From NCBI GenBank assembly GCA_042563375.1, contig JBHPMF010000004.1, forward strand, positions 14,902 to 78,901: DNA of 64,000 nucleotides, written 5' to 3'. Below are positions 6,253-51,778 of this stretch, piece after piece (positions within the stretch are counted from its first letter, which is position 1; the number at the start of each line of letters is the position of its first letter). A program made the position numbers and the translations under genes. The DNA comes from Elusimicrobiota bacterium (GTDB lineage: Bacteria; Elusimicrobiota; Elusimicrobia; JACQPE01). The notes under the pieces are model-generated. The model was not told the DNA's origin and ran no database searches. It worked only from the letters and a program-made list of their open reading frames with translations.

Positions 6253-9200
6253 TCAACCTACCACTTCCCCCGTATCAATGTCATTATTAAGATGCGCGCT
6301 CTCATAATGTTCATAGCGCTCTTTAACAGGCTCGATAAGGCCCCTTAAAAAGTGGATCCCGTAGATAATATGCGTTGAAAGTATGCCCGGCGCTGTCAGG
6401 AATCCCACGTACACGCTTTTCTCGGCGATCGCGGCTCTGGCCATGTCGAATACGAGTCCTGCCAGGTACATTAGAGTAACGCCTAAAAATATCTTCTGGA
6501 ACAACGCGGACATGCTCGAAGCCGCTGTCAAGAATACAAGGCACATGACGAATATGCTGGGCGCAGCATAGGATATCCTTCTTGATGTTTGAGGATAGAG
6601 CTTCCAAAACTGCCCGCGGCAGAACCCGTAGCGGCTCACCTGCGAAAGATGTTCTTTGAATAACGTCCTTCTGTGATGCCACACAAAGACTTCCGGATCA
6701 TAGATTATCTTCTTGCCGGAACGCACGATATCAAGACAAAGCTTTGTATCCTCTCCCGGCCAATACTTCGTCTGAAAACCCCCGAGAGAATCAAACAGGT
6801 CTTTTCTTATGAAAAAATTCACCGACGGGAAATCATCAACCAGCCTTGACTTGCCCGGCCTGTACCGGTTCGCGCAGAATCCGCCTCCCATTACAGTGGC
6901 GAACACCGCGCCTGAGGCTTTTTGCCATATATTGTTCGATTCAGGGGTGACAGCCGGTCCGCATACAGCGCCCACTTGGGGATCCGCAAAATGCCTTACA
7001 GCTTTATCGAACCAGTCAGCTTTAGGATAAGCATCATCATCGAGAAAAGCCAGGATCTCTGCGCTCGCGTGCTTAAAAGCCATGTTGCGCTTTGTCGCCG
7101 GATCCACCGCTCCGGTTGCGATCACGCGCGCATGCGCAGCTGTCCTTATTTCCGGAGTGAAATCATTCGCGGATATTTCATCAGGAAGGATTATGATCTC
7201 GTAATTTTTGTAATCAGTGCCTGTGAATTTAGAAAGAGATTCCGCTATATACGCGTTGATCCTCTTGACCGGGATAACAACGGAAACACTGGGCATATAA
7301 TTCGCGCAAACACTGCCCTCGGGAATGCTCCATTGCTTATCAATGCCCCTTTGCTTGATGAGCATCAGCACATTTATCACCAGGATCCCGGCCCCGACAC
7401 CGCCTACGATATAGAGCACAGAAGCCAGTGTATCGTGAAACAGTATTATAAGCACTGCCTCAAGAATGACTCCCGCTAAAAACGTCCACACAAAACTAAC
7501 GCGTTTTACAGCGTAATTGAAATTCATGATGATCTGAAGGAGGGCATACGGAAGCATGGCAAAGCTGAAAAGCCCGAGGATGGATGCCCCTTCGGGATAT
7601 CCTGACCCCAGAAGCACCCTCATGAACAATCTCGGAGCGATCGCGAAAGCCATGGCGCCTATGGTCGAGATTATTCCGGAAAGGACCAGGCCTTTCCTTA
7701 AAACGCCTGCGGCGCTTCCGGATGAAGCATTGACCCCTGAGGCAATGGGTAAAAGCACTGCCACGATACAACCGTTAACGAATATTATGGAGCGTGCCAG
7801 CACAGCCGCGGCCGCGTATTGCCCTGACAAATGCGATGAGAAATAATGCTTGACCAATATCATGTCAAGCCCGATAAAAAACGCGAAACACACATGCCCT
7901 ATCAATATGGGCAAACTGTATACGAGCGCCTCGGAAAAGAAACCTTTCTCTTTTTCATAGATTTTTGCGTCCATTGACGAGCGGATCCATGGCCATGATG
8001 CCACAACCAGGACGCCCAGTAATGCCGTGAGATTGGCAAACATGGCGCCGTTAAGGCCCAGGCCCACAAGAACCACAAGACCGAACCCAAGCAGAAATCT
8101 CAGGAGTCCTCCGCCTCCGCTTAAAACCCCGAAAAAGAAGAATTTATGCGCTCCCTGCAGCAAGCCCATGCTTACAGGCAGTAAAAACGACACTGCCACG
8201 ATTCCTATTGCCACATAGAACGGGAAACTCTGTTCAACATGAAGGAACTTAGCCACAAAAGGCTTTGCTGCCAAAAGCACAGCGCTCCATGCGATCGCAA
8301 GAAAGAATGCCTGAATATAAGATTTCTTGGCAAAACTCGCGAAACGCTCCATCTGTTTTAAAGCTTTGAATTCAGCGCTGTATTTGGCCACAACCGTCTG
8401 GATCGTGGCAGTAAAAGAACCCGCTATCATTGTGATCGATAATATGGAATTAAGCGCTCCGTAATCAGAGGATGAGAGGTTCCTGCTCATTGTGAACTGA
8501 TAAAAATAAGCAGCAATATTACCCACCATGGAGAACGCGAACACGATGATACTGCTTCTAAGCAGAGTATCCGTGATATCGAGCTTTGAGAACACCTTCC
8601 CCAAAACCGACATCCCGCCCCCCTGCTTTCCCTCTTTCAGCCATTCTCTTTCTTTCTCCTCCCCCCTTGAGGGGGAGGTCGGGTGGGGGGTTTCCGCTAT
8701 CCCCTGCTGCCCGGCGCTCGAGTGAGCCCCATTGAATTTCCCGCGCTTCCTGTAAATCCCCTCTAGCCTGTCATAATAACGCACGATATAGAGCCTATAG
8801 AATATCGCCAGAGTATCAATGCCTGTGCGAAAATAATCACCTGAACTGATGCGCCCCCATTTTTTTCTCCTGCTGAATGTCAACACAACAGGAGCTTCCG
8901 ATATCCTGAAACCCCAGTGATGGGCATTGGCAAGCATCTCAACGTCAAATGCCCATTTCTTACTGAGGATCAAGGGGAACACCTTATTAAGGACTTTTCT
9001 CTTGTAGATCTTTAAGCCTGATTGCGTATCTTTTAACGGCAGATTAAAGAAAACTTTCAGGAAAAACGCGTATACCCTGCTTGCGATCTTGCGCATAAGC
9101 GGGTATTCTATCTCGGAGAATGGGTGGAATTTCGATCCAATGACCACGTCAGCATTCTCCCGCCTCATAACATTAAAAAGCACGCGCAACTGGGCAGGAT

Positions 9201-9564
9201 GAAGCTCAAGGTCAGAATCCAGAAAAACTATGACTTGGCCCGTCGCACGCTTAAAACCCTCTTTGAGAGCATGTCCCTTGCCTCTGTTGCGCAATATGTC
9301 AACAGAAGTGACCATGCTGTATTCTTTTGAGATCCTTTCAAGCTCCTGCGAGGTATTATCGATCGAGCCGTCATTAACAACCACAAGCTCATAATCAGAT
9401 GCTAATTCTCCGGCGCACTTGAGTGTTTCCTGGATGTTCTTATAAATATGGCTCCCCTCATTATGCGCAGGCATGATAACAGAGAGCTTGCCAAGAAAAT
9501 CAGCTCGCTTCTTAAAATGTTTCTTGTTTGTTTTTTGAGACTTTGCGTTGATTACTGTATCCAT
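6253..9564 (-). CDS. tri-modular envelope protein: GT2 (Dpm1/GtrB-like), Wzx/MurJ-type polysaccharide flippase, and membrane-anchored synthase-like GT2
   Basis: 1103-aa uninterrupted ORF. The N-terminus has LSVIMPAHNEGSHIYKNIQETL...VVVNDGSIDNT...FLDSDLE. The middle has about 12 hydrophobic helices typical of oligosaccharide flippases. The C-terminus has VSVVIPVKRINAY...AFLDDDA...PGEDTKLC...QVSRYG (QxxRW-like) plus C-terminal TM helices. Confidence 0.75.
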   Translation of the reverse strand: MDTVINAKSQKTNKKHFKKRADFLGKLSVIMPAHNEGSHIYKNIQETLKCAGELASDYELVVVNDGSIDNTSQELERISKEYSMVTSVDILRNRGKGHALKEGFKRATGQVIVFLDSDLELHPAQLRVLFNVMRRENADVVIGSKFHPFSEIEYPLMRKIASRVYAFFLKVFFNLPLKDTQSGLKIYKRKVLNKVFPLILSKKWAFDVEMLANAHHWGFRISEAPVVLTFSRRKKWGRISSGDYFRTGIDTLAIFYRLYIVRYYDRLEGIYRKRGKFNGAHSSAGQQGIAETPHPTSPSRGEEKEREWLKEGKQGGGMSVLGKVFSKLDITDTLLRSSIIVFAFSMVGNIAAYFYQFTMSRNLSSSDYGALNSILSITMIAGSFTATIQTVVAKYSAEFKALKQMERFASFAKKSYIQAFFLAIAWSAVLLAAKPFVAKFLHVEQSFPFYVAIGIVAVSFLLPVSMGLLQGAHKFFFFGVLSGGGGLLRFLLGFGLVVLVGLGLNGAMFANLTALLGVLVVASWPWIRSSMDAKIYEKEKGFFSEALVYSLPILIGHVCFAFFIGLDMILVKHYFSSHLSGQYAAAAVLARSIIFVNGCIVAVLLPIASGVNASSGSAAGVLRKGLVLSGIISTIGAMAFAIAPRLFMRVLLGSGYPEGASILGLFSFAMLPYALLQIIMNFNYAVKRVSFVWTFLAGVILEAVLIILFHDTLASVLYIVGGVGAGILVINVLMLIKQRGIDKQWSIPEGSVCANYMPSVSVVIPVKRINAYIAESLSKFTGTDYKNYEIIILPDEISANDFTPEIRTAAHARVIATGAVDPATKRNMAFKHASAEILAFLDDDAYPKADWFDKAVRHFADPQVGAVCGPAVTPESNNIWQKASGAVFATVMGGGFCANRYRPGKSRLVDDFPSVNFFIRKDLFDSLGGFQTKYWPGEDTKLCLDIVRSGKKIIYDPEVFVWHHRRTLFKEHLSQVSRYGFCRGQFWKLYPQTSRRISYAAPSIFVMCLVFLTAASSMSALFQKIFLGVTLMYLAGLVFDMARAAIAEKSVYVGFLTAPGILSTHIIYGIHFLRGLIEPVKERYEHYESAHLNNDIDTGEVVG
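8655..8700. repeat. family A palindromic repeat, copy A1 (inside the GT2-flippase-GT2 ORF)
   Basis: TCTCCTCCCCCCTTGAGGGGGAGGTCGGGTGGGGGGTTTCCGCTAT. The palindromic core is CCTCCCCC-TTGA-GGGGGAGG. Confidence 0.9.
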
Positions 9565-9750
9565 AGTTTTAATAGCGATAAATCATATCAGGGACACACT
9601 ATCCCCTATACTATATAGGCGAGGAATAAAGCATGGCCTTACCAACGGCTTATATAAGAGGATTTTACCAAATATCAAGTATGTCCCCAATGGAAGCGCG
9701 GTATTATCTATTGCTTTATGCGTAAATTTCGGGTTAATACAACAAATGGC

Positions 9751-11325: not shown

Positions 11326-11429
11326 ATTTGCGATCTACTACATTATCTCATAATGATTGCCGCGCCAGGCGGACCACTTCCGTTAATTTGCCCAGACAAG
11401 CTCACAAGACTGACTGCATTGCAGGGTTT

Positions 11430-13171: not shown

Positions 13172-13186
13172 TTATGTCTCTTTGTC

Positions 13187-13248
13187 ATCCCCGCGAAGGC
13201 CTGCTTCCAAATTATTGGAGACGCTGGTGCCCTCCAGGGTGCGGGGAT
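13187..13248. repeat. family D element (dctP-dctQ intergenic): 8-bp terminal inverted repeat around 46 nt
   Basis: ATCCCCGC (13187-13194) and GCGGGGAT (13241-13248), preceded by the TGTC string also seen in family E. Confidence 0.6.
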
Positions 13249-13322
13249 CCAGTACAATTTGATATAGAGATCTTCTGCTGTTACAAAGATAGGAACAAGT
13301 CTATTCAACATAGCGGTTCTGG

Positions 13323-13342
13323 ATTCCCGTCTCCACGGGAAT
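13323..13342. repeat. family D hairpin (dctP-dctQ intergenic)
   Basis: ATTCCCGT-ctcc-ACGGGAAT followed by GACAG. Confidence 0.75.
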
Positions 13343-13364
13343 GACAGACGATTTACATTTCAAG

Positions 13365-14465
13365 CTATTTCGCAACTTTTTTGGAAGGCTTTTTCTTTTT
13401 ACTCTCTTTAGCTTTCTCTTTCGCTGAAGCCAGGATCCCAAGCACCTTATCCAAAAGATCTTGCGGGTAAAGCTTTCCGACAAGACCCTGTCTTACGTTC
13501 ACGGAAATATCCTTGAATTTCTGAATATCCTTTTGAGCGAACGGCACGACTTTAAGCCCGCGCTTTTTCATGGCTTTAAGGGCAGTACTATTTTCCTTTG
13601 TTGTAAGGTCCCGCAAACGCGCCATGTATTTTTTATTAAGCCTCGAGAGTATCGCCTGATCCTGCTTACCTACCTTGTCATAAAACTTTTTTGAGATCAC
13701 AACAGCTCCGACTGAAAAACATATGGGTTTATCAGTCACATACTCCACCTTTGTGAACCATTGCAGGGCAATGGCAGCGAGATGGGAAGCATAAACCGTG
13801 TCAATAAGGCCTGTTTGAAGGGATGTCAGGACATCCGGAAGAGAAAGCGAGATCGGGGTTATGCCGAACCCTTTAAAAAACGCCTGCGGCATGGGATCCC
13901 CCTGCCAGGTCCAGACTTTAAGCTTTTTTAAATCATCAGCGCTTTTGATCGGAGATTTTGAATAAAGATGGATGAATCCCGCATCTGCCCAATCAGAAAG
14001 CACAAAACCTTTTTTCTCGAATTCCTTTTCAAAATACGGCGTAAGATGCTCTCTTAAAAGACTTAATTCAGAAACCTTGTCAAAAAGAAAAGGTATCTCG
14101 AACACCCTTACCTCAGAGAGGATCTCGCCTAATCCAAAGCCCGTGAAGCCTGAGGCGTGAAGCTGGCCGAACCTGATCTTCCTTAAAACATCTTTCTCGT
14201 CTCCGGACACGCCGCCCGGATAGATCTTGAGTTTTAATCTGCCTTCTGTCTCCTTTTGCAATTCCTTGTCGAATTCGCGCAACACATTCATCCATGTGGA
14301 TCCTTCAGGCGCTATTGTGGCGAATTTCATTTCAAGCGCAAGCAAACTTGAAGCTCCCAAAAATAGAAGTAGCGCGGCAGCTTGTATGCCGCTCTTAAGA
14401 AACGGGGTACAAGCCCCCGCGCTACGAAGAAATTTCGCAAAAATCAAACTTTTAGAATAATTCAT
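13365..14465 (-). CDS. dctP: TRAP transporter substrate-binding protein (TatT-associated type)
   Basis: 366 aa. Signal peptide, then MKFATIAPEGSTWMN...LKIYPGGVSGDEKDVLRKIRFGQL, as in DctP-family SBPs. Lys-rich C-terminal tail. A repeat overlaps the 5' end (see findings). Confidence 0.85.
   Translation of the reverse strand: MNYSKSLIFAKFLRSAGACTPFLKSGIQAAALLLFLGASSLLALEMKFATIAPEGSTWMNVLREFDKELQKETEGRLKLKIYPGGVSGDEKDVLRKIRFGQLHASGFTGFGLGEILSEVRVFEIPFLFDKVSELSLLREHLTPYFEKEFEKKGFVLSDWADAGFIHLYSKSPIKSADDLKKLKVWTWQGDPMPQAFFKGFGITPISLSLPDVLTSLQTGLIDTVYASHLAAIALQWFTKVEYVTDKPICFSVGAVVISKKFYDKVGKQDQAILSRLNKKYMARLRDLTTKENSTALKAMKKRGLKVVPFAQKDIQKFKDISVNVRQGLVGKLYPQDLLDKVLGILASAKEKAKESKKKKPSKKVAK
14369..14425. 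repeat. family C palindromic element C1 (inside the dctP 5' coding end)
   Basis: The arms GTAGCGCGGCAGCTTGTA (14369-14386) and TACAAGCCCCCGCGCTAC (14408-14425) are complementary at 16 of 18 positions. Confidence 0.8.
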
Positions 14466-15336: not shown

Positions 15337-15448
15337 AATTACCCTATTTTATAACAACTCTTCTTTCTTTTCTGGCAACCTCAAACTTTCGCAGTGGTGA
15401 GCAAGCGCAGCAAGTCGAATCCAAGCCTGCGCCTACCCTGCACCTTCT

Positions 15449-15476
15449 CGGTAGTCTCAGGCTTTAGCCTGTGTCT
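15449..15476. repeat. family B repeat, half-copy B1 (inside the carB 3' end)
   Basis: CGGTAGTCTCAGGCTTTAGCCTGTGTCT, to be compared with B2 and B3. Confidence 0.8.
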
Positions 15477-18400
15477 TCTCTTCTCTCCCTTCTTCTCCCC
15501 ATTGGCGGGGAAGACTCTGCGGGGACGACAGAGCATGGATTTTTTTATTCCGCGAAGTCCAGTCACCCAAAGAACGCACCAAGATCCTTTCCTGCACCAG
15601 GCTCTTAACAGCTTTAAGAGCTGCCAAAGCTCCTGCCTGCGTTGTGATATACGGAACAGACAGATCAACGCATGCCCTTCTGATCTTATACCCATCTGAG
15701 CCTATCCTGCCGCCTCTTGGGATATTGAGCACCAGGTGGATATCCTTGTTCTTCATCATGTTTATGAGCTTGGGGTCATCTTTAAACTTTGGCACATGAC
15801 TTACTCTGATGCCCTTGCCAAGAAAGAACTTCTGCGTTCCTTCTGTTGAATATACTTCAAAGCCCAGGTCAACGAATTCCTTTGCTATAGGCGCGAAAGC
15901 TTCCTTTTGCTCACCCCTGCCTATGCTAAAAAACACATTTCCTGTTTTGGGGATCTCCTTAAAAGCCGAGGCTTGAGCCTTGTAAAAAGCTTTCCCGAAA
16001 TCTGAATCTATACCCATCACTTCCCCTGTTGATTTCATCTCAGGGCTGAGCACGGGATCGACCCCGAGAAGTTTTAAAAACGGGAAAACAGGCGCTTTGA
16101 CTGTTACAAAATCAGGCTCAAAATACTCGGCCAAACCGAGATTTTTCAGCTTTTTGCCGAGCATTATTTTTGTTGCGATCTTGGCAAGAGGCACGCCTAT
16201 AGTCTTACTAACATATGGCACAGTTCTTGAAGCCCGCGGATTAACCTCAAGAACAAGGATGTTATCACCCTTGATCGCATACTGCACATTCATCAGTCCT
16301 GATACCCTCAACGCCCTGGCAAGTTTTTTTGTGCAAGAGATAATACGGTTTTTTACCTCCCTATTGATCGTTTGAGGCGGTATAACGCAAGTGGAATCAC
16401 CTGAGTGAACACCTGCTTCTTCGATATGCTCCATGATCGCTGCCACAAAAACATCCTCTCCGTCTGATAACGCGTCAACATCGACTTCTATGGCATTGTC
16501 AATGAATTTATCAATTAGTACAGGATGCTCAGGGCTTACACTCACTGCCTCTTTCATGTATCCCGCCAATTCCCGGGCATCATCAACGACTTTCATGGCT
16601 CTGCCGCCTAAAACGTACGACGGCCTTACAAGGACCGGGTATCCTATCTTGTCCGCCACGTCACTTGCTTCCTTAAATGACATTGCAGTTCCCCATGCGG
16701 GGGACGGGATATTGATCTCGCGCAGCAAAGCCCCGAATTTTTTCCTGTCTTCTGTGATATCCGTGTTTTCAGGAGGCGTGCCTAATATCCTGATACCTGC
16801 CTTGTGTAACCTCACGGCCATATTGATCGATGTCTGCCCTCCGAACTGCAGGATCACTCCATACGGCTTCTCCGTATCAACGATATTGGCCACATCCTCA
16901 TATGTCAAAGGCTCAAAGTAAAGCTTGTCTGAAATATCAAAATCAGTGCTCACGGTTTCCGGATTATTATTCGCGATAAGCGCTTCCACGCCTTCTTCGC
17001 GCAATGCGGATACAGCATGAACGCAGCAGTAGTCAAACTCAATGCCTTGTCCTATGCGGATCGGACCTGAACCCACAATGAGCACTTTTTTCTTCTCTGA
17101 TGGCAATGATTCATCTTCTCTCTCATAGGTGGAATAAAAATACGGTGTATGGGCTTTAAATTCAGCTGCGCATGTATCAACAAGCTTGAATGTGGGTGTT
17201 ATGCCCTTTTGCTTCCTGAAATCCCGGATACGATCCTCTGTTTTTCCTGTGATATTTGCTATTTGAATATCTGAAAATCCCATTTGCTTGGCAGTAGAAA
17301 TGGAGCTCTCGTTAAATTTGATCTTCTTCCCATACTCATAGATCTGCTTGATCTTGAACAAGAACCACTCATGCACGCCCGTTAACCTGCTTATCTCCCT
17401 GATGCTCATGCCTATAGCCATTGCATCGCGGATATAAAGAAGTCTCTTGTGAGTCGGAACCTTAAGATTACGGATGATCTCAGGCTTGTCTTTGATGATC
17501 TTATCCTTGGCATCATGGCCCAGCCCGGATCTGCCCACTTCCAATGAGCGTATTGCTTTTTGCAAAGCTTCTTCAAAAGTCCTGCCGATCGCCATGGTCT
17601 CCCCTGTTGATTTCATCTGGGTCCCGATGCGCTTATCAGCGGTCTCAAACTTGTCAAAAGGCCATCTTGGGATCTTCACCACCACATAATCGATAGTAGG
17701 CTCAAAACACGCAAGCGTTTCTTTTGTCACGTCGTTCTTGATCTCATCTAAAGTCATGCCCAGAGATATTTTCGTGGCGATCCTGGCTATTGGATACCCG
17801 GTAGCTTTTGAAGCAAGAGCGGAGCTCCTTGAAACCCTTGGATTGACTTCCACTACGCGATATTCTCCGGTGTCATAGCTCATCGCGAACTGGACATTGC
17901 AAGCGCCTATTATCTTCAGCGCCCTGATGATCCTTATGGCAGCTGATCGCAATGTCTGGAAGTCATTATTGTTTAAAGTCTGGGTAGGAGCCACCACTAT
18001 GCTTTCTCCGGTATGGATACCCATTGGATCGAGATTCTCCATCGGGCAGATCACAATGCAATTATCCGCGCTGTCGCGGACCACTTCGATCTCGAACTCG
18101 CCCCAACCTTGCGTCCCCAAAATCGCCTGTTCAATAAGCACTTGGCCGATAAGGCTCAAGCGTAAACCCTGCTGCGTAAGATCAAAAAGCTCTTCATCAT
18201 TAAAAGCGATCCCGCCGCCTGTTCCGCCGAGCGTATAAGCAGGCCTTATAATAAGAGGAAACCCGTATTTATGGGCAAACACTTCAGCGCTTTGGGTATT
18301 CTCAACAGTCTTGCTTTCAGGTATAGGCTCTTTTAGCTCGTGCATGCGATTGCGGAATTTTTCTCTATCCTCGCTCTCTTCAATGCTTGATATGGAAGTT

Positions 18401-18750: not shown

Positions 18751-18783
18751 TATGTAGAAAACCTCTTAACCTCTCTGAATTCG

Positions 18784-18845
18784 CCTCTCCCCTTGAGGGA
18801 GAGGCCCCGCCTTTGGCGGGGGTGAGGGGTTTCCGCTATTTCTCT
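18784..18845. repeat. family A repeat, copy A2 (carB-carA intergenic)
   Basis: CCTCTCCCCTTGAGGGAGAGG-CCCCGCCTTTGGCGGGG-GTGAGGGGTTTCCGCTATTTCTC. Two stacked hairpins, sharing the GGGGTTTCCGCTAT tail with A1 and A6. Confidence 0.9.
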
Positions 18846-18883
18846 CACAAAAGAAAAATAAAGAAAATGTAATAAGGATCCGC

Positions 18884-20032
18884 TCAATTACCCCTCACCC
18901 TAACCCTCTCCCTCAGGGGGAGAGGGGAATCAATATCCCTCACAAACTCATCAAAAATAAACTCCACATCCCTTGGTCCGGGATTGGCTTCAGGGTGCAT
19001 CTGCACGGTTCGGATCGGCAGTTTTGCATGCCTCATACCCTCGACGCTCCCGTCATTGAGGTTTATATAAGTGACTTCAAGACCTGTTCCCGCGAGACTC
19101 TGGGCATCTATCGCAAATCCGTGATTCTGGCTTGTGATATGGACTTTGTTATCAATAATATTTTTAACAGGCTGATTCACTCCTCTATGCCCGAATTTCA
19201 ATTTATATGTTTTAGCGCCCAATGCCAGGCCAACGATCTGGTGGCCAAGGCAGATCCCGCTTATGGGCATCTTTGCATGAAGTTCGCGCACGCAGGCAAT
19301 AGCGTCTGTTGCCATTTCAGGATTCCCGGGGCCATTGGCAAGAAATAAACCATCAACATTTAATTTGAGGATATCCTGCGGTTTTGCATTGTAGGGCATG
19401 AGCACGACATTCACATTTCTTTTTGTGAAATTGCTGATTATGCTTTTCTTGATCCCTGTGTCGATTATCGCTATGGTCTTGCCTGCGCCGATACCTATCC
19501 TTTTGCGAGCTTTAACAGATACTTTGCGTAAAAGCTCCAATGAAGCGTAATTTGCTGCGCTCTGCGCCTGCTTAAGCACTTTACTCTCATTTATCGGACG
19601 CTGTGACACTGCTAAAACAGCATTCATCACACCTTCTGTTCTTACGATCTTTGTGATAAGCCTTGTATCAATGCCTTCTATCCCGGGTACGCGGTTTTGT
19701 TTAAGGAAAGTGCCCAGGCTGATATTCGAATCTCTGTGCTTGTAGAATTGGCTGAGTTCTCTTATTACAAAGCCTTCTGCTTGTACGCGGCTGGATTCAA
19801 GATTCGCTTTATTGACTCCGTAATTGCCTATTAACGGATACGTTGATACGAGTATCTGGCCTTTGTAAGACGGGTCAGTAAGGGATTCTTCATATCCCAC
19901 AAAAGACGTGTTAAAGACTATTTCGCCTGAAACTGTTTTTTCAGCGCCAAAACCCGCGCCCGTAAATACTGTACCGTCTGAAAGAGCTAATACAGCTTTT
20001 AGTTTTTTATTATTCAAATCCGTTGTCTCCAT
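18884..20032 (-). CDS. carA: carbamoyl-phosphate synthase small (glutaminase) subunit
   Basis: 382 aa. Catalytic GICLGHQ and the HPE triad. The C-terminal DSPLPLRERVRVRGN is encoded by repeat copy A3. Confidence 0.95.
   Translation of the reverse strand: METTDLNNKKLKAVLALSDGTVFTGAGFGAEKTVSGEIVFNTSFVGYEESLTDPSYKGQILVSTYPLIGNYGVNKANLESSRVQAEGFVIRELSQFYKHRDSNISLGTFLKQNRVPGIEGIDTRLITKIVRTEGVMNAVLAVSQRPINESKVLKQAQSAANYASLELLRKVSVKARKRIGIGAGKTIAIIDTGIKKSIISNFTKRNVNVVLMPYNAKPQDILKLNVDGLFLANGPGNPEMATDAIACVRELHAKMPISGICLGHQIVGLALGAKTYKLKFGHRGVNQPVKNIIDNKVHITSQNHGFAIDAQSLAGTGLEVTYINLNDGSVEGMRHAKLPIRTVQMHPEANPGPRDVEFIFDEFVRDIDSPLPLRERVRVRGN
18891..18927. repeat. family A repeat, copy A3 (inverted relative to A2; inside the carA 3' end)
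   Basis: CCCCTCACCCTAACCCTCTCCCTCAGGGGGAGAGGGG. Its reverse complement parallels A2. Confidence 0.85.
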
Positions 20033-20150
20033 TCTGTCATCCTGAACTGGTTTCAGGATCTCATGTGGTTTTTCACTTCAATTAATAACCGGCAAATCAA
20101 TAATGTACTTTCTTATTGAGATCCTGAAACCAGTTCAGGATGACAGAATG
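20030..20150. repeat. family E: 34-bp perfect inverted repeat pair filling the guaA-carA spacer
   Basis: Arm 1 is 20030-20063 (CATTCTGTCATCCTGAACTGGTTTCAGGATCTCA). Arm 2 is 20117-20150, its exact reverse complement. Each arm is also a hairpin on its own (ATCCTGAA/TTCAGGAT). Confidence 0.95.
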
Positions 20151-20164
20151 AAAAAATAAACTTC

Positions 20165-21700: not shown

Positions 21701-21775
21701 ATAATCTCTGCGAATTTTTTATTCTTAATTAACTTTTTCCTTCTGCTTCTTCTCTCTTTAGTGCCTTTTTCTTCG

Positions 21776-21790
21776 TTTCAGCCCTCAGCC
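21776..21790. repeat. family F repeat, second locus (guaA-purF intergenic)
   Basis: GTTTCAGCCCTCAGCC matches 6218-6232. Confidence 0.7.
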
Positions 21791-25425: not shown

Positions 25426-25488
25426 CAGGGTCACGTCTTCAGAATTCAATTTCCGAAGTTGAAATTGAATTCTGAAGATGTGACCCTG
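25426..25488. repeat. 28-bp-stem hairpin in the divergent lysE / orphan-gene region
   Basis: CAGGGTCACGTCTTCAGAATTCAATTTC - cgaagtt - GAAATTGAATTCTGAAGATGTGACCCTG (one G/A mismatch). Confidence 0.9.
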
Positions 25489-27483: not shown

Positions 27484-27559
27484 ATCACAATCCTAAACTC
27501 TTCAAAATACTTTCCTCTTCGCAATACACCCCTTATCCTCCCCTCGCCCTCCCTCATAT

Positions 27560-27604
27560 TTCTCCTCCCCCTTGAGGGGGGAGGTTGGGTGGGGGTGATA
27601 AAGT
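27560..27604. repeat. family A repeat, copy A4 (between the ABC ATPase and permease genes)
   Basis: TTCTCCTCCCCCTTGAGGGGGGAGGTTGGGTGGGGGTGATAAAG. Confidence 0.9.
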
Positions 27605-28712: not shown

Positions 28713-28800
28713 ATTATCCCCTGCGCAACAATTTTTTCTGCCTACACTAATATAGAACATGAGAACTCTAAAATTGCAAGTTTTAAATTCAACTATCTCT

Positions 28801-28882
28801 CCGGTAGCCTCAGGCTTCAGCCTGTGCCTTTTCTGCTCTGTTCTGCAAAAGAACAGACACAGGCTGAAGCCTGAGGCTACCG
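28801..28882. repeat. family B repeat, full nested palindrome B2
   Basis: CCGGTAGCCTCAGGCTTCAGCCTGTGCC...CTGTTCTGCAAAAGAACAG...ACACAGGCTGAAGCCTGAGGCTACCGG. The outer arms are about 26 bp with one mismatch next to the loop. An inner 7-bp hairpin is also present. Confidence 0.9.
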
Positions 28883-28903
28883 GAAAAAATATATCAAGAA
28901 AAA

Positions 28904-30367: not shown

Positions 30368-30414
30368 TTTCTCCTCCCTCTTGATGGGGGGTGTTGGGTG
30401 GGAGTGATAAAGAA
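30368..30414. repeat. family A repeat, copy A5 (degenerate; MBL-cupin intergenic)
   Basis: TTTCTCCTCCCTCTTGATGGGGGGTGTTGGGTGGGAGTGATAAAGAAG. Shares the TGATAAAG tail with A4. Confidence 0.8.
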
Positions 30415-30736: not shown

Positions 30737-30911
30737 ATTCACCTCCGAATACTTCGATGCCCGATAGCAATAAAAGATTCTCCTTTCTCGCGGGATCCTC
30801 CCCGCGCTTCTAGCATCTAATCATAAAAAGAAGCGTATAGGTTCATCTTCGATCGACAAAGTCTGGAAAAGTAACCGGTCTTCGCTCATATAACTCCCGT
30901 TCTGCCCCTCT

Positions 30912-30945
30912 TGGTAGCCGCAGGCTTTAGCCTGTGCCTGTTCTG
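30912..30945. repeat. family B repeat, half-copy B3 (cupin/HAD divergent intergenic)
   Basis: TGGTAGCCGCAGGCTTTAGCCTGTGCCTGTTCTG. Confidence 0.8.
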
Positions 30946-31044
30946 GTAGTCGCACCCTTCTGCGAAGCGGGGCTCCCCCGTTCGTGTTTCGCCTCTTGAT
31001 TATCCTCCTAATCTCCCATAAAATAGGACTTTCCGGTTAATCCA

Positions 31045-39100: not shown

Positions 39101-39443
39101 CCCTTTCTTCTTTTTTCTCCTCTCTTCGTAGCGCGGCAGCTTGCATGCCGCTTTCCCCTTCTCTTCTCTCTCCCGCAGATGAACTCCCCCACGACTCCTG
39201 GACAATCGGATCCGTTACTATTTCCTTTGCCTTCCCAGCCTGCTCAGGAGTCAAAACATCCAGCATAAAGACCTTTCTTGTCCTGACATCTTTGACGCTC
39301 ATGCCAAGAAAACTGTTTATCTTGTCCCTTGTAGCCACTCCAAGCGGATCCGCCACGCCTTCTTTGCATCCCACTTCGACCCAATGAAACACAGTTGCGC
39401 CCTTATCTGCGACTTGCTCTAAAACGATTGTTTTTTCTTCCAT
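36144..39443 (-). CDS. purL: FGAM synthase II with two fused N-terminal PurS-like modules (PurS-PurS-PurL)
   Basis: 1099 aa. Residues ~20-85 (...KEGVADPLGVATRDKINSFLG...VTDPIVQESW) and ~115-190 (SFKPGVTDNVGSTL...LLANLLIERIEVQSF) both look like PurS. The PurL core follows (ETHNSPSALEPYGGAMTGIVGVNRD, two AIRS-like repeats). Confidence 0.9.
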   Translation of the reverse strand: MEEKTIVLEQVADKGATVFHWVEVGCKEGVADPLGVATRDKINSFLGMSVKDVRTRKVFMLDVLTPEQAGKAKEIVTDPIVQESWGSSSAGERREGESGMQAAALRREEKKEEREINFTWSILVSFKPGVTDNVGSTLKKLLKDIFADAFSDNAGVHTATQYMISGDISEEDANRISKELLANLLIERIEVQSFEDWKNNGLKIDPPRVKGDQGVTVNQINLNVSDEELIDISKKGTLAFNLKEMCAIRDYLKKPEALEKRKEMGLSEDPTDVELEALAQTWSEHCQHKIFNALIDFTDEKGEVTKIDSLFDTYIKRVTEEIAGTPHLASPTSGEEIAEEEKGADGDVSQGESGEQDFDISNWKYEIPDARSARTEKKKKVEKVDWLLSVFKDNAGVIKFNDKINLVYKVETHNSPSALEPYGGAMTGIVGVNRDPMGTGMGSKPLINVWGYCFGDPFSQDVPSGMLHPRRVRAGVHQGTIDGGNQSGIPYGRGWEIFDQKYSGKPLVFCGTVGIMPGTIAGKPSHEKSLAPGDCIVMVGGRVGKDGIHGATFSSLELDKDSPMQAVQIGDPITQKKMSDMLIEARDKGLYCAITDNGAGGLSSSVGEMAKMSNGAQIDLEKVPLKYKGCQPWEILLSEAQERMTLAVPQAKLDELLSLAKKRDVEATNLGQFTDSGKFHIKYGDKTVAFLDMDFFHNGYPRYELTAKWKQKRFKEPTPVKVDNLTPVLENMLSRLNICSIEEKSRQYDHEVKGLTVVKPFAGKDSDVPSDAAVFMSGLGEKEGIVLSEGINPFYSDIDTYHMAASCVDEAVRKTISAGGRLDFMAGLDNFCWPRSIPEDFKDYSEEELAHLHYKLAQLVRANQGLYDTLKDFRIPLISGKDSMFNDFTRVDPAISVPPTLLVSIISKINDVRRAVTVDIKRPGDYVCVLGTTFNEMGASEYYRILSEVSEGDPCIGNKIPKVKSKQALKLYKALSKAMSKELINSSHAVVKGGLGVALAKTAFAGGLGIDADLREVPQRGVDTDDCLLFSESNSRLIVTVSDATRYNFEKVIKGCPYAYVGKVREDSKFNVIGLEGNPIIQTDVERLKQVWQKPLRGI
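38436..38486. repeat. family A repeat, copy A6 (inside purL)
   Basis: CTCCTCCCCACTTGTGGGGGAGGCCAGATGGGGGGTCCCCGCTATTTCCTC. Confidence 0.85.
39128..39152. repeat. family C repeat C2 (inside purL, in the linker between the PurS-like modules)
   Basis: GTAGCGCGGCAGCTTGCATGCCGCT is identical at 24 of 25 positions to 14369-14393. Confidence 0.85.
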
Positions 39444-39713: not shown

Positions 39714-40115
39714 CTAAATCCCTATCCAAAGATTGATCGCGTCATACCCTACTTGCGGATGGACACACCGCCTGGCTGAAGCCTTTTCTTTTGTTAGTTT
39801 CACAAGACCAAGCTTTGACAGAAGCTCGATATCCTTGAACACGCCGGGAAAGCTGCGGCGCGCCATTTTGGCCAGCCTATATAGATTTCTGGGGCTTTTC
39901 TCTTTGATGAGATGAAGTAATTCTAAACGTTTTGGGGTTAGGAAATTCCCTGCTGCTTCAAGGCTAGCAAAACAAACGCCCGTCTTCGGCGTGAAGGAAG
40001 TCCGTTTTTGCGCGGCTTGAAAGGCTTTCTCGAAATTATTTGAAGCTTTTTCTGCGCTTCCGATATTTATCACTATTTCCTTTTCCTTGGAAAATTGGCA
40101 GCGTATGGCACGCAT
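39714..40115 (-). CDS. winged-helix DNA-binding protein (COG4190-like putative antitoxin/regulator)
   Basis: 133 aa. LTPKRLELLHLIKEKSPRNLYRLAKMARRSFPGVFKDIELLSKLGLVKL is a wHTH of the type found in TA-associated regulators. Confidence 0.55.
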   Translation of the reverse strand: MRAIRCQFSKEKEIVINIGSAEKASNNFEKAFQAAQKRTSFTPKTGVCFASLEAAGNFLTPKRLELLHLIKEKSPRNLYRLAKMARRSFPGVFKDIELLSKLGLVKLTKEKASARRCVHPQVGYDAINLWIGI

Positions 40116-40137
40116 TATTGCGATCTCGATATCAATT

Positions 40138-40434
40138 TCATCGACCCCCGGTAAACCTCGATAGTCCTGTATCTATAATGCTTCTTAAAAGAACTTGATA
40201 CGGAACATGTTTTTTGTCGGCGATCGCCTTGGCCATGCGAAGCTGGCTTGGATACAGACGAATACTGATAAGCTTGGCTTTTTCGTGGCGATCGCGAACT
40301 TCGGCTTGAAGTCTGGGAAATATTTCCAAAGGTTCTTTAATATCTTCGAAGTCGTCCCAAAAATCCACGGTATCATGTTTCATCCAGAAATCAGCTTCCT
40401 CTTTTTGGGTTTTGAATTTTGGAATTTTTTTCAT
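40138..40434 (-). CDS. brnA: BrnA-type antitoxin (RHH/CopG-like)
   Basis: The ATG at 40434 overlaps the brnT stop (ATGA), with AAGGTGG upstream. MKKIPKFKTQKEEADFWMKHDTVDFWDD...ISIRLYPSQLRMAKAIADKKHVPYQVLLRSII is typical of BrnA. Confidence 0.75.
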   Translation of the reverse strand: MKKIPKFKTQKEEADFWMKHDTVDFWDDFEDIKEPLEIFPRLQAEVRDRHEKAKLISIRLYPSQLRMAKAIADKKHVPYQVLLRSIIDTGLSRFTGGR

Positions 40435-40700
40435 TTTAACCACCTTTTTAATCTTATCTTCTCATTTCGCGTCATTGGTCTTGCGCTGAATGGCCTTACT
40501 GAACCATGACCCTTATGCTGGAACACCACTAAAACATAACGTCCATCAAGGGTCTGTCCGTAAGCGAGATAACCCCCGCTTCTAGCCCTGCGGACAAGCC
40601 GCGCTCCAAGAACGACTTCTTCGATCTCACCCCTGCTAACGCCATGAATAATGGCATGAAATAGATTATTCTTGTCCCATTCGAAAGATCTGATTTTCAT
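40431..40700 (-). CDS. brnT: BrnT-type toxin (DUF497 ribonuclease)
   Basis: 89 aa. FEWDKNN...HGVSRGEIEEV...GRYVLVVFQHKG..VRPFSARPMTRNEK fits the BrnT pattern. Confidence 0.8.
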   Translation of the reverse strand: MKIRSFEWDKNNLFHAIIHGVSRGEIEEVVLGARLVRRARSGGYLAYGQTLDGRYVLVVFQHKGHGSVRPFSARPMTRNEKIRLKRWLK

Positions 40701-43827: not shown

Positions 43828-43852
43828 AATTACCTCTCTGTTACATTTTTTA

Positions 43853-43881
43853 TGTCATGCTGAATTTATTTCAGCATCTCA
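43853..43881. repeat. family E-like hairpin (purH-purC intergenic)
   Basis: TGTCATGCTGAATTTATTTCAGCATCTCA. Same layout as the family E arms (TGTCATSCTGAA...TTCAGSATCTCA). Confidence 0.8.
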
Positions 43882-43920: not shown

Positions 43921-45114
43921 CTATCTATGCAGGAAACATCTCTCGCTGTCTGATGTTCCCGGCTTTCTTGTCACGATCATGGCGATCCCAAGCTCATCAG
44001 CTTTAGCTAACACTTCCTCGTCCTTATTCGAGCCAAGCGGATATATGATCGCCTTTATGTTGTTTCTTGCTGCAAGCTCCACAACATCCGCAAACGGCAT
44101 ATAAGCATCCGAAGCCAGAACGCAGTCCTTAGGCCCGTAACCCCTCTGCGATGCAACGATCGCATTATTAGCCGAGTCGATCCTGCTTCTCTGGCCTGAG
44201 CCTATGCCGTGCGTCTTGTCCTTTTGCCCGATGATCACGGCATTCGATCTTGTGAACCCCGCCACTATCCATGTAAATATTGCCGCGTCGATCTCATCAT
44301 TGCCCAGCTTCCTTTTCGAGATGATCTCCACGCAATCCCGCGATATCACGCGCGTATCGTATTTGTTCTGGACAAGAAGCCCTCCTGCCACTCTCTTGTA
44401 TTCAGTATCTTCATACACGGCAGGCTTGTTGATGTCAGCCATCTTTACGACCCGCAATGCTTTTCTTGCTGAAAGAATATCAAGAGCCTTGGCTGCGAAT
44501 GATGGAGCATATACCACTTCGATATTCCGCCTGCCCTCGCAAAGGAGCTTGGCAAGCTCCTCGGTCACCTCATAGTTAAAAACATCCACACTGCCGAAAT
44601 TAGACAGCTCATCGCACTTCCACGCTTTCTCAAAAGTTTGAACAGGCTCCTCTCCTATGGCCACAGAACTCGGCATCTCATGCTTCATCACAGCGCACAC
44701 ATGCTTGCCGGGAAAAGCATCATGGAGTTTTTTTACAAGCCTCTGGCCCAGGTCCATATCCCCGATATTTATATAACTCAAACCCTTTGCGCCTTCTCTA
44801 AGCACTTCCATAGTAGCCATCAAGGGACCCATGGCTCCCTCTTCGCTGTAAAATGCCGCCGGCTGGCCCGGGTTCTCTCCATATCTTAATGACATTATCT
44901 TCTTTAAATTAAGCGACGCACCCTCAAGATGTTTGCGCAATTTGGCAATGACCGCATCCGCCTCGCTCTTTGAGATCTTGTTGGAAAGCTCTTTCTCAAG
45001 AACTGTGATCATGCTGCACGGGTCTGTTATCAGCAATTCCTGTGAGAACCGCTCTTCTACCTTTCTCTTATATTGACTCTGTCTTTGAGCATCCAGTTTA
45101 ACTGTATTAGGCAT
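43921..45114 (-). CDS. purH: AICAR formyltransferase domain protein (C-terminal half of PurH as a separate ORF)
   Basis: 397 aa. SLRYGENPGQPAAFY, GLSYINIGDMD, and SDAYMPFADVVELAARNNIKAIIYPLGS are AICARFT hallmarks. Confidence 0.85.
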   Translation of the reverse strand: MPNTVKLDAQRQSQYKRKVEERFSQELLITDPCSMITVLEKELSNKISKSEADAVIAKLRKHLEGASLNLKKIMSLRYGENPGQPAAFYSEEGAMGPLMATMEVLREGAKGLSYINIGDMDLGQRLVKKLHDAFPGKHVCAVMKHEMPSSVAIGEEPVQTFEKAWKCDELSNFGSVDVFNYEVTEELAKLLCEGRRNIEVVYAPSFAAKALDILSARKALRVVKMADINKPAVYEDTEYKRVAGGLLVQNKYDTRVISRDCVEIISKRKLGNDEIDAAIFTWIVAGFTRSNAVIIGQKDKTHGIGSGQRSRIDSANNAIVASQRGYGPKDCVLASDAYMPFADVVELAARNNIKAIIYPLGSNKDEEVLAKADELGIAMIVTRKPGTSDSERCFLHR

Positions 45115-45709
45115 GAACCCCCCTGTAATATTGTGCGAGTTTATTATCGTAATTTGCGGTTACTTCAAACACTTTTCCGGCAAGTTCCATTCGCCGATCA
45201 AGCGTTAAACCTCCTTTTTGTTTTATCTCATTGGCCACCGGAAGATAGTCAGCCGGATCAGCCACCACTCCCACATATTTATGATTCTTCGCTGCCGCGC
45301 GGATCAATGTAGGACCTCCGATATCTGTTAATTCAACGACCTGATCCATAGTCGCGTTCTTTGAAAGCGCCTCTTCCACAGGATATAGATTCACGACAAC
45401 CAGGCCGATATCAAGAATATCATGCTGCGCTGCTTCTTTGACATCCTGCTCATTATCTCTTCTGTATAAAATTCCTCCATGTACTTTTGGATGAAGAGTC
45501 ACTACCCTGTGCCCGAAAAGAGCCGGATACGTCGTGTATTGGGCTATATCTTTTGTATCAATGCCTGCTTCTTTGAGTTTCTTTGCGGTGCCCCCGCTCG
45601 ACAAAATCTTTATATTGCAGGATTGCAGGATCTTAGCCATCTCCACGATCCCATCTTTATAATAAACGCTCATCAACGCATATTTGATCGGCAAAATATT
45701 ATTACTCAT
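45107..45709 (-). CDS. purH: IMP cyclohydrolase / MGS-like domain protein (N-terminal half of PurH as a separate ORF)
   Basis: 200 aa. ALMSVYYKDGIVEMAKIL...ILSSGGTAKKL...RVVTLHPKVHGGIL...VVVNLYP...TDIGGPTLIRAAAKNH. The stop overlaps the next ATG (ATGCCTAA). Confidence 0.85.
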   Translation of the reverse strand: MSNNILPIKYALMSVYYKDGIVEMAKILQSCNIKILSSGGTAKKLKEAGIDTKDIAQYTTYPALFGHRVVTLHPKVHGGILYRRDNEQDVKEAAQHDILDIGLVVVNLYPVEEALSKNATMDQVVELTDIGGPTLIRAAAKNHKYVGVVADPADYLPVANEIKQKGGLTLDRRMELAGKVFEVTANYDNKLAQYYRGVHA

Positions 45710-45782: not shown

Positions 45783-45790
45783 CTTTATTA

Positions 45791-47867: not shown

Positions 47868-48077
47868 AATTACAAAGACCCGCCTCTTGATAATTTCTGA
47901 CTTTTTTCTAACTTGGAACTTGGGGCAAAATACCCTTGAGATGATAATCTCAATGATATTACAGCTCTCATAACTGCCTATTTGAAATATACAACTTTAA
48001 AATCAAACAAGCAAAGACCGCGATCAATGTATACGCTATCTTGTGGGTAGGTAAGTCCGGATAACTAAATCTTGTGG

Positions 48078-48773: not shown

Positions 48774-48864
48774 AATACCTCCAAATAAATATTATTTCAC
48801 AGGTAAGCAAGCGGAACATAGGACTTTAGGGAAGTTTCCCCTTAGGACCAATGCCGATAACCCG

Positions 48865-48936
48865 GCACCGGGGTCAAAGCTTAGAATTGCGCTTTTCGCT
48901 ATGCAAAAGCGCAATTCTAAGCTTTGACCCCGGTGC
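48865..48936. repeat. 32-bp perfect-stem hairpin just 3' of the thioredoxin-like gene
   Basis: GCACCGGGGTCAAAGCTTAGAATTGCGCTTTT (48865-48896), an 8-nt loop, then the exact complement at 48905-48936. Confidence 0.95.
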
Positions 48937-48938
48937 TG

Positions 48939-49175
48939 CTACTCTTTGAGCATTGCTTTGATTTCTTCTGTGGTGGGGACTTTGCCTGTTGTTTTTATGA
49001 TCCCGTCTATTGAAAGAGCAGGCGTGATAAATACGCCGCGCGCAGCTATTGCTTTCATGTCTTTGACTTTTTCCATGTAGCATTCAATGCCGAGTTCTTT
49101 AGCAGCGGTCTCCGCGTTTTTATAGAGCTTGTCGCATTTTGCGCATCCTATACCGAATATCTGTATGAAAGCCAT
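48939..49175 (-). CDS. thioredoxin-fold small protein (redox-active disulfide protein 2 / MTH895-like)
   Basis: 78 aa. MAFIQIFGIGCAKCDKLYKNA has a CxxC at the end of strand 1. It sits directly downstream of the DUF318-type permease. Confidence 0.75.
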   Translation of the reverse strand: MAFIQIFGIGCAKCDKLYKNAETAAKELGIECYMEKVKDMKAIAARGVFITPALSIDGIIKTTGKVPTTEEIKAMLKE

Positions 49176-49184
49176 GTTTCCTCC

Positions 49185-50483: not shown

Positions 50484-50496
50484 AGAGTTGATTCCA

Positions 50497-50988: not shown

Positions 50989-51728
50989 AAGATAACGGAA
51001 GCAGCATGAGAGACATTAAGGGAATCAATATTTTGTGATTCCCTGATGGGAATACGCACAAGCATATCGCATAATTTTCTGGTTAATTGGCGCATACCCT
51101 GGCTCTCAGAACCCAATACAATACAGATCTTCTTTGGCCAATCACCCATTTTCCTGATATCCTGGGCATCAGACCCTGAATCCGCACCTATAATCCAAAA
51201 ATCAGCGTCTTTAAGCTTGTTGAACACATTGGCCAGATTGCTTGCTTCGCAAAAATCAATATCTTCCGCTGCTCCCTGGCTGATCTTCCAGACTGCCGGA
51301 TGGATCAATGGAGCGCTTCTGTCTCTTGCAGCCACTATAGCCCTGATCCCGAAACAAGCAGCAGTTCTGGTTATCGCCCCGATATTGGTATGGTCGGTTA
51401 TGCAATCAAGAGCAAGAAGCTTCATGCCTGATGCCTGCGCTTGATCCGATTTTGACTCAAAGATCAGATCATTGATCTCAACGCGCTCAGGAGATCCGTT
51501 TAATTTAAGAATAACACCTTGATGATTAAAAAACCCTCCCGCAACCGAATCCATGTGTTTTCTATCGAGCTTCTTGATCTGTGCTTTGCGTTTATTCGCC
51601 AAAGAAGCGATGGTCCTGCCAAAATCAGCATCAACAAGATGGGAAGCGATCATAAGCTCCTGGAAATCGTATTTTCTTTTTGATCGAAGAGCAGCTAAAA
51701 CAGACTTTTTTCCGGAAATTTCAAACAA
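50964..51728 (-). CDS. rlmB: SpoU/TrmH-family RNA 2'-O-methyltransferase (RlmB-like)
   Basis: 254 aa with a TTG start. GKKSVLAALRS at the N-terminus and SPOUT motifs (HTNIGAITRTAACFG, VLGSESQGM, IPIRESQNIDSLNVSHAASVILWE). Its position after cysS matches Bacillus yacO. Confidence 0.75.
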   Translation of the reverse strand: MFEISGKKSVLAALRSKRKYDFQELMIASHLVDADFGRTIASLANKRKAQIKKLDRKHMDSVAGGFFNHQGVILKLNGSPERVEINDLIFESKSDQAQASGMKLLALDCITDHTNIGAITRTAACFGIRAIVAARDRSAPLIHPAVWKISQGAAEDIDFCEASNLANVFNKLKDADFWIIGADSGSDAQDIRKMGDWPKKICIVLGSESQGMRQLTRKLCDMLVRIPIRESQNIDSLNVSHAASVILWEANRKQ

Positions 51729-51730
51729 GG

Positions 51731-51778
51731 TCCACCCCCACCTAAACCTCCCCCCTCAAGGGGGAGGAAAATAAAGAA
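51731..51778. repeat. family A repeat, copy A7 (cysS-rlmB intergenic; G-tract arm inverted)
   Basis: TCCACCCCCACCTAAACCTCCCCCCTCAAGGGGGAGGAAAATAAAGAAG. Confidence 0.8.

Follow-up and report, generated by a model that had tools for sequence, protein, structure and literature searches.

Do the palindromic repeats scattered through a 64-kb stretch of an Elusimicrobiota genome, some of them inside the genes of housekeeping enzymes, represent a selfish element specialised for insertion into coding sequence, or do they belong to repeat classes known from other phyla? The stretch (the window, to which all window counts below refer) comes from a metagenome-assembled genome (MAG). A first-pass annotation, made from the sequence alone, had listed several unrelated palindromic families and had likened them to Rickettsia palindromic elements (RPEs) rather than to REP/BIME elements. 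The coexistence of unrelated families was borne out: family A, a group of hairpins headed by GTCAT, and the B and C families headed by GTAG are distinct classes. We consider it probable that the hairpin repeats of the window, short and strand-oriented, are a mixture of at least three unrelated classes that are known from other phyla, are non-autonomous and are maintained in trans. An apparently exotic finding becomes an assignment to three repeat classes known in E. coli, Neisseria and Pseudomonas. What remains notable is the presence of BoxC/PIT, reported until now from Proteobacteria and between genes only, in an Elusimicrobiota genome and inside the open reading frames (ORFs) of CarA, PurSL and a glycosyltransferase.

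Family A and the BoxC/PIT/TMECO Motif

Seven good copies of family A were located, at as many sites as the first-pass annotation had counted, together with a decayed eighth copy at 15489-15525 (Table 1). The design consists of a C-rich arm, a loop of 3-7 nucleotides (nt), a G-rich arm, a second loop that sometimes contains a nested hairpin, and a G-rich third segment in mirror image. The published pattern, CCCTCNCCC-N3-6-GGGNGAGGG-N3-GGGNGAGGG, was matched exactly by the minus-strand copy at 18892-18926, and the remaining six copies fit a relaxed pattern with 8-nt arms. Most copies are an asymmetric variant, CCTCCCCC / GGGGGAGG / GGTGGGGG.

The third segment was examined with a mirror test, requiring a hairpin and, after it, a mirror image of the purine arm in which each G faces G and each A faces A or T, at most one mismatch per segment being allowed. 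Six of the seven copies passed and 20 Markov shuffles of the window gave no match. Across 46 distinct motifs from the window and the fetched loci described below, the base opposite a purine-arm A was A or T in 72 cases out of 72, never G or C. In Watson-Crick folds of most copies the core of the third segment remained unpaired, being touched by weak or alternative pairs alone. If the third segment were a direct repeat of the purine arm, an alternative Watson-Crick hairpin could form, whereas an antiparallel purine-motif triplex needs a mirror repeat. Because the variant is asymmetric, it separates triplex pairing, for which the mirror is predicted, from the alternative hairpin, for which it is not: GGTGGGGG is a mirror copy of GGGGGAGG and not a direct copy. 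The relation between the two segments argues against a simple alternative Watson-Crick hairpin.

The region 18775-18940 was compared by blastn with 5426 complete E. coli genomes. Matches were obtained in 5157 of them (80-99% identity over 47 nt, median 11 places per genome) and, among the matches listed, none lay under an annotated feature. The inverted pair 18779(+)/18889(-) has the layout of the E. coli hrpB-mrcB pair, in which the second loop is TTA in one arm and of CCG type in the other. Holder et al. 2015 (PMC4666352), who cite earlier work by Bergler and by Hoyne and Maher, described BoxC/PIT/TMECO with 23 copies in K-12 and 3610 in 262 proteobacterial genomes; triplex formation in vitro has been documented for isolated strands of the E. 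coli sequences by circular dichroism and nuclear magnetic resonance, and E. coli copies were reported as always intergenic (0% in ORFs). Judged by its sequence, family A is assigned to this intrastrand triplex motif. The window copies share with the E. coli elements the three-segment design, one exact pattern match, the inverted pair layout and the lack of a mobility gene nearby. They differ in being mostly of the asymmetric variant instead of the CCCTCNCCC/GGGNGAGGG form, in carrying two lineage-specific tails (GTTTCCGCTAT and TGATAAAG) and in their host, an Elusimicrobiota, whereas the 262 reported genomes are all proteobacterial. They also differ in that three or four of the eight are read as protein sequence: the copies at 8653, 18889, 38433 and 15489 are located inside ORFs and not between genes.

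Hairpins with a GTCAT Head

Three loci (13184-13345, 20036-20144 and 43854-43877), which probably correspond to a family E announced at three sites, share the layout (C/T)TGTCAT, stem, loop, stem, ATC. Each of the five arms, at 13184, 13345, 20036, 20144 and 43854, has the GTCAT head and a C right after the palindrome. The pair between guaA and carA folds as a 120-nt hairpin of -35.5 kcal/mol.

The Neisseria repeat NTS, CGTCATTCCCGCGMAVGCGGGAATCYRG, includes the older dRS3 repeat and is cleaved as single-stranded DNA by the GIY-YIG protein SsnA; cleavage depends on the bases immediately 5' of the palindrome and binding on the C that immediately follows it (PMC11893778). NTS-related hairpins named SRM flank ssn genes in many phyla (PMC11893778), and in a preprint Bertels and Rainey placed the NTS hairpin among the REPINs, paired with a Group 2 RAYT (bioRxiv 10.1101/2021.07.10.451892). 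The window hairpins resemble NTS and SRM in the (C/T)GTCAT head, in the palindrome followed by C and in their arrangement as inverted pairs between genes. The right arm of the dctP-dctQ locus, TGTCATTCCCGTGGAGACGGGAATCCAG, departs from the NTS consensus only in its first base, its inner stem and its loop. They differ from the known elements in that the CCTGAA/TTCAGG and GCTGAA/TTCAGC stems do not conform to the SRM pattern, one loop measures 46 nt, and no ssn gene is present within the window. The bases on both sides of the palindrome indicate that these hairpins are of NTS/SRM architecture; their cleavage by an Ssn protein is putative here.

Hairpins with a GTAG Head

The B consensus is GGTAGCC-[T/G]CAGGCT-T[T/C]-AGCCTG-TG and the C consensus begins with GTAGCGCGG. 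Five to six B arms, four of them exact matches to a 27-nt degenerate pattern and up to two weaker, occupy three loci (15403-15476, 28803-28881 and 30913-30966), and C occupies two, as had been announced; shuffled sequence contained no match to either pattern. Every intact arm starts with GTAG and continues as an imperfect palindrome. Doublets were found at 28796-28888, 14369-14425 and 15403-15476 and singlets at 30913 and 39128. The C doublet folds at -21.8 kcal/mol; its second arm (14403-14425) reads GTAGCGCGG on the reverse strand by eye, with no C-pattern match within three mismatches.

A GTAG head with singlets, inverted doublets and tandem copies is the architecture of REP, REPIN and BIME elements, which are mobilised by RAYT (TnpA-REP) transposases and are expected in tens to hundreds of copies per genome, with a RAYT gene between copies of its own REP. 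From their heads and palindromes, B and C are REP/REPIN-like hairpins, and the mosaic tandem at 30913-30966 resembles a BIME cluster; the location of the copies at the 3' ends of genes is a further likeness. REPs are commonly regarded as species- or genus-specific, whereas the B hairpin is conserved across unrelated lineages with 42-66% GC. Two more differences are that no RAYT was seen in the window and that both C loci are located in coding DNA, an unusual setting for "extragenic" palindromes.

Table 1. Coordinates of the repeat elements and long hairpins of the 64-kb window (aa, amino acids).
Feature	Position	Strand	Structure and context
A1	8653-8700	+	CCTCCCCC-CTTGA-GGGGGAGG-TCG-GGTGGGGG, tail GTTTCCGCTAT; inside ORF 6253-9564, aa 289-304
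A2	18779-18839	+	carA/carB intergenic; left half of inverted pair; nested hairpin CCCCGCC-TTT-GGCGGGG in loop 2
A7	18889-18930	-	Right half of inverted pair; exact TMECO pattern; codes the end of CarA
A3	27559-27603	+	Tail TGATAAAG; intergenic, 37 nt past ABC ATPase stop codon
A4	30368-30412	+	Decayed triplex motif, tail TGATAAAG; intergenic, 9 nt past cupin stop codon
A5	38433-38480	+	Inside PurSL, ~aa 322-337; 1 hairpin mismatch and 1 third-strand mismatch
A6	51732-51775	-	Triplex motif; intergenic, 19 nt past cysS stop codon
Decayed A-like copy	15489-15525	+	Within extended CarB C-terminus, aa 1076-1088
Family A variant motif, example			CCTCCCCCTTGAGGGGGAGGTCGGGTGGGGG
S1	13184-13345		Inverted pair between dctP and dctQ; left arm TGTCAT-CCCCGC-(46-nt loop)-GCGGGG-ATCCAG, right arm TGTCATTCCCGTGGAGACGGGAATCCAG
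S2	20033-20152 (arms 20036-20144)		Inverted pair of TGTCATCCTGAACTGGTTTCAGGATCTCA, 34 nt identical; between guaA and carA
S3	43854-43877	+	Single hairpin GTCATGCTGAATTTATTTCAGCATC, TCA next at 43878-43880; intergenic
B1	15403-15476		Head-to-head pair, (-) arm 15403-15436 and (+) arm 15450-15476; carB stop codon in (+) arm
B2	28796-28888		Intergenic inverted doublet of GGTAGCCTCAGGCTTCAGCCTGTG, REPIN-like; 93-nt hairpin, -42.7 kcal/mol, z = -13
B3	30906-30966	+	B copy followed by a second, decayed GTAG-headed hairpin GGTAGTCGCACCCTTCTGCGA; the two in tandem at 30913-30966
C1	14369-14425		Inverted doublet of GTAGCGCGG-headed hairpin, 57 nt = 19 codons, in frame in DctP
C2	39128-39151	+	Single C copy inside PurSL
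Long hairpin	25426-25488		28-bp stem, 20 nt upstream of lysE-type gene
Long hairpin	48863-48938		34-bp stem, starts 1 nt past stop codon of 78-aa thioredoxin-like ORF
Hairpin	54386-54456		19-nt arms, 33-nt spacer; between ispD and next gene

Distribution in Other Genomes

Exact-pattern scans of IMG/VR retrieved, on contigs of 28-72% GC, 63 loci for the A core, 34 for the GTCATCCTGAAC..GTTTCAGGATC hairpin of the guaA-carA type, at least 120 for the NTS-type hairpin, 24 for a relaxed B pattern and a single one for C. The hairpins are nearly unchanged despite this range of GC, and many A copies keep the nested hairpin in loop 2. It follows from these near-identical copies that the A, B and GTCAT hairpins are cross-lineage families, whereas C and the GTTTCCGCTAT tail of A appear local; when metagenomes were scanned for the lineage-specific A tail, the one match was due to chance and lacked a hairpin. 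The conservation sharpens the question of what holds such short sequences constant across phyla.

Scanning a genome-contig collection with the 27-nt B pattern gave one match, in an unrelated Deltaproteobacteria MAG of 60% GC (JAUSOZ010000211.1, locus L064). The match, at 7505-7531, is exact and lies about 95 nt from the end of a 7.6-kb contig on which two BoxC-type motifs are also present. Its location near the contig end suggests that repeats break assemblies.

Two of the four families were found on one contig in 16 of the 241 fetched loci (L007, L044, L045, L078, L081, L083, L088, L094, L113, L140, L177, L188, L192, L218, L228 and L235). These are short viral or prophage contigs from unrelated hosts and carry BoxC-, NTS-, GTCATCCTGAAC- and GTAG-type hairpins.

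Element Copies in Reading Frames

Six element loci, about 40% of the total, overlap five ORFs and leave the frame intact. The best documented case is PurSL (ORF 36144-39443, minus strand, 1099 aa, identical to MFC1521159.1), whose nearest homologue is 54% identical in the best local BLASTP alignment. Compared with 77 homologues (median 998 aa), the protein has four lineage-specific segments, at aa 1-16, 98-116, 324-381 and 839-845. The segment 324-381 is a 58-residue insertion missing from the 77 homologues, with an A copy at its start. The insertion at 98-116 (19-24 residues), at the boundary between PurS and the linker domain, is likewise missing from the homologues, and a C copy codes part of it. 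Conserved sequence continues in the same frame on either side of both insertions. Since the frame is conserved on both sides and the 77 homologues lack the insertions, these two copies cannot be an artefact of ORF calling.

In the AlphaFold2 model of PurSL (mean pLDDT 83.4, pTM 0.87), pLDDT was below 50 at residues 1-14, 88-101, 103-108, 110-113 and 327-382, with shorter low-confidence runs at 415-418 and 547-566. The element-bearing insertions appear in this model as predicted disordered linkers between well-folded domains.

Other parts of the PurSL-specific sequence contain no recognisable repeat. They are the 16-residue N-terminal extension (39396-39443), the 7-residue segment EDFKDYS (36909-36929) and, in the 58-residue insertion, the 42 residues beyond the A copy. 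A second, inverted A copy was considered for these 42 residues and the likeness was too weak. The "EEIA" present on both sides of the A copy was rejected as a target-site duplication, since two other copies have the ATAGCGG tail within the element itself.

In CarA, the alignment to solved structures (PDB) stops at aa 368 of 382; the last 14 residues, SPLPLRERVRVRGN, are coded by the minus-strand A copy, directly followed by the stop codon. For CarB the alignment stops at aa 1057 of 1097, which corresponds to residue 1063 of 1073 in E. coli CarB, and about 30 extra residues run through the decayed A copy into the B arm that holds the stop codon. The dctP gene has a good GGAG and ATG start, after which come MNYSKSLIFAKFL, the 19 codons of the C doublet (aa 14-33) and LLFLGASSLLA, a succession that places the doublet within the signal peptide. 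The situation is different in ORF 6253-9564. Homologues with the flippase-GT2(-GT1) organisation (GT, glycosyltransferase) start at the flippase domain, near aa 330 of the query, and an ATG is present at aa 318. The A copy of this ORF thus sits where a GT2 gene, upstream, meets a flippase-GT2 gene, downstream, corresponding to a fusion or a read-through call and not to an insertion into a protein core. By our own reading of the frames, four of the six A reading frames have no stop codon.

The claim that copies inside ORFs leave the frame unbroken was upheld as regards insertions for PurSL (twice) and DctP; the copy at 8653 is at a gene junction and CarA and CarB have gained C-terminal tails only. 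Over-extended ORF calls, named beforehand as a possible source of such copies, are excluded for PurSL by the 77 homologues, whereas ORF 6253-9564 does merge two genes. This last case, the MAG origin of the sequence and the contig of L064 ending about 95 nt past its B copy would be expected if the whole pattern resulted from mis-assembly of the metagenome at repeats or from ORF calls extended too far. We judge this extremely improbable. Every copy has flanks in which the gene order of conserved operons is kept (purine genes, carAB, TRAP transporter), the PurSL frame is conserved around both insertions, and the repeats exceed all shuffle controls.

A biological alternative is that the repeats are RPE-like, i.e. 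selfish, lineage-specific palindromes specialised for in-frame insertion and coding for tolerated peptide modules. Like RPEs, they are palindromic repeats found in frame at permissive sites of unrelated housekeeping proteins (PurSL twice, DctP, CarA, CarB), with no transposase nearby and with an unbroken frame at the six loci in five ORFs. The internal A copies of the GT2 ORF and of PurSL moreover share frame and orientation, giving IAETPHPTSPSRGEE and IAGTPHLASPTSGEE, and the in-ORF share is far higher than for BoxC in E. coli or for NTS in Neisseria, where 2% is reported (PMC11893778). RPEs are, however, about 150 bp long (PMC10969869), AT-rich and confined to Rickettsia, with a palindrome of ~100-150 bp, whereas the units found here are 25-60 nt, GC-rich and of cross-phylum classes, a separation made on length, base composition and distribution. 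The A, B and GTCAT hairpins are not lineage-specific, being nearly unchanged and mostly intergenic in unrelated genomes; half of the six overlaps leave the protein core untouched, being overruns of a stop codon or, in one case, the junction of two genes; and the sample is 64 kb only. We regard the RPE-like explanation as unlikely. The comparison made in the first-pass annotation is apt for the in-frame copies, and fails for the families themselves, which are of BoxC/PIT, NTS/SRM and REP/REPIN-like classes. In-frame copies in essential enzymes are uncommon, yet they do not define a new kind of element.

Density and Position of the Elements

The first-pass annotation had placed a hairpin in nearly every gap above 60 nt and had described the intergenic DNA as saturated. 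We scored gaps of at least 60 nt for a 44-nt window with folding on a par with the best 1% of coding windows. Such a window was present in 10 of 28 gaps, and the count rose to about 13 once long-range and AT-rich doublets were included. The listed elements cover 708 of the 4382 intergenic nt (16%) and a further 266 nt within ORFs, so that both statements were too strong. Within coding sequence, the two most stable windows of the whole stretch are the A copies at 8653 and 38433.

In 11 of the 13 intergenic element loci, the distance from the stop codon of the preceding gene to the start of the element is 9-44 nt. This proximity is weak evidence of targeting, the spacers being only 66-190 nt long. 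With elements located near stop codons, stop-codon overruns are the commonest kind of in-ORF copy.

The same distribution could be expected of cis-acting signals, such as stabilisers of mRNA 3' ends, punctuation of transcription or translation, or sites limiting recombination as shown for NTS and SsnA, the similarity of the copies then resulting from the structure required. The location past stop codons in tightly packed single-strand operons, the stability of the hairpins (z down to -13) and the modulation by NTS repeats of the integration of transforming DNA in Neisseria (PMC11893778) are in agreement with such a role. With spacers this short, however, proximity to a stop codon is nearly inevitable. 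None of the hairpins inspected was followed by a T-run, on which ground intrinsic terminators were rejected, and PIT elements showed no promoter or terminator activity in E. coli. Moreover the elements occur in both orientations, as doublets and in coding sequence, and an identity over 25-35 nt across phyla is far beyond structural need. A cis-acting function as the origin of the repeats seems to us improbable.

The window has a GC content of 44-49% and a GC skew that is negative in every 2-kb bin, and 55 of its 58 ORFs are on the minus strand. When the eight A copies, decayed copy included, are considered together with those B and C arms that have no partner, the G-rich or GTAG strand is on the plus strand, antisense to the genes, in 9 of 11 cases. 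This gene layout makes orientation relative to replication and to transcription inseparable.

A Proposed Model of Maintenance in trans

We come back to the mixed population of known hairpin classes, which we hold to be the probable explanation. The assignments to families, the mirror rule, the spread across lineages, the in-frame status and the disordered context are shown by the present analysis, whereas mobility, the enzymes and any function are proposed from the literature on those classes. In this model, the elements would be non-autonomous DNA recognised when folded and single-stranded, and their multiplication or upkeep would be ensured in trans by enzymes coded elsewhere in the genome. 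The GTAG hairpins would likely depend on a RAYT-type HUH transposase and the GTCAT hairpins on an Ssn-type nuclease partner. Elements would build up where they are least harmful, in the short spacers just past stop codons of a compact genome, and an insertion overrunning a stop codon or falling in a disordered linker would be retained if the frame stayed open. The outcomes would be the C-terminal tails of CarA and CarB, the apparent GT2/flippase fusion, the longer DctP signal peptide and the two PurSL loops.

Several observations weigh against this model. The Pfam scan, covering all 57 ORFs of at least 90 aa (the 78-aa ORF 48939-49175, no. 58, being left out), showed no transposase, integrase, RAYT or GIY-YIG gene, in agreement with the first-pass annotation, which had seen no mobilisation gene in the window. 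The 64-kb window thus provides no RAYT, Ssn or other candidate enzyme; crude GIY-YIG and RAYT motifs gave no match there either, the patterns being insensitive. Approximately 2 Mb of fetched loci contained no RAYT or GIY-YIG match, a weak negative obtained with the same kind of crude, insensitive motif patterns, and the fetched B loci had no Y1/HUH ORF by crude motif. Target-site duplications are not evident. No mobility gene is reported in association with BoxC, and its triplex was not detected in vivo (PMC4666352). The degenerate SRM pattern, as transcribed, matches nowhere in the window. On visual comparison, the right arm of the dctP-dctQ locus is one position off that pattern, and the stems of the two other GTCAT loci are outside it.

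A bolder proposal is that the BoxC motifs are truly mobile single-stranded DNA elements, which would cross phyla and phages together with GTCAT and GTAG hairpins on a shared vehicle or host factor, and which would colonise coding DNA here, creating new loops and tails in essential enzymes. The loci with two families and the strict mirror rule in the asymmetric variant fit this proposal without proving it, and we give it little credit.

Other Features of the Window

The long hairpins announced at 25426, 48865 and 54386 are real (Table 1). Rfam gave zero matches in the window at gathering score and, at permissive E-values, spurious microRNA-precursor matches alone, on the long hairpins. No tRNA genes were found in the window.

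A 23-nt repeat, TTTTCTTC[A/G]TTTCAGCCCTCAGC, is present at 6209-6231 and 21767-21789 with 96% identity. On the minus strand, each site comes right after a stop codon; the first also has neighbouring copies of CCCTCAGC. The two sites may represent the family F previously reported at two sites, whose palindromic nature was not recovered: the repeat is not palindromic.

The gene content is housekeeping only. Among the scanned ORFs, those of purine and pyrimidine metabolism are purD, purF, guaA, carAB, purM, purN, purQ, purSL, purB, purE, purC, purH and guaB; the others include a TRAP transporter, cysS, ispDF, radA, alr, dnaB, ribosomal protein genes and ssb. The 78-aa thioredoxin-like ORF with a CxxC motif (48939-49175, minus strand) sits in an apparent gap of 411 nt. 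At 39714-40443, a CopG-antitoxin-like ORF (40138-40443) adjoins an ORF of the HVO_A0114 family (39714-40115), and the two look like a small toxin-antitoxin-type pair amid housekeeping genes. The purH gene (43921-45709) seems to be divided between two ORFs overlapping by 8 nt: ORF 45107-45709 has the MGS domain and positions 1-58 of the AICARFT/IMPCHase profile, and ORF 43921-45114 has positions 65-309. A frameshift, a sequencing error or a genuine split may account for this arrangement.

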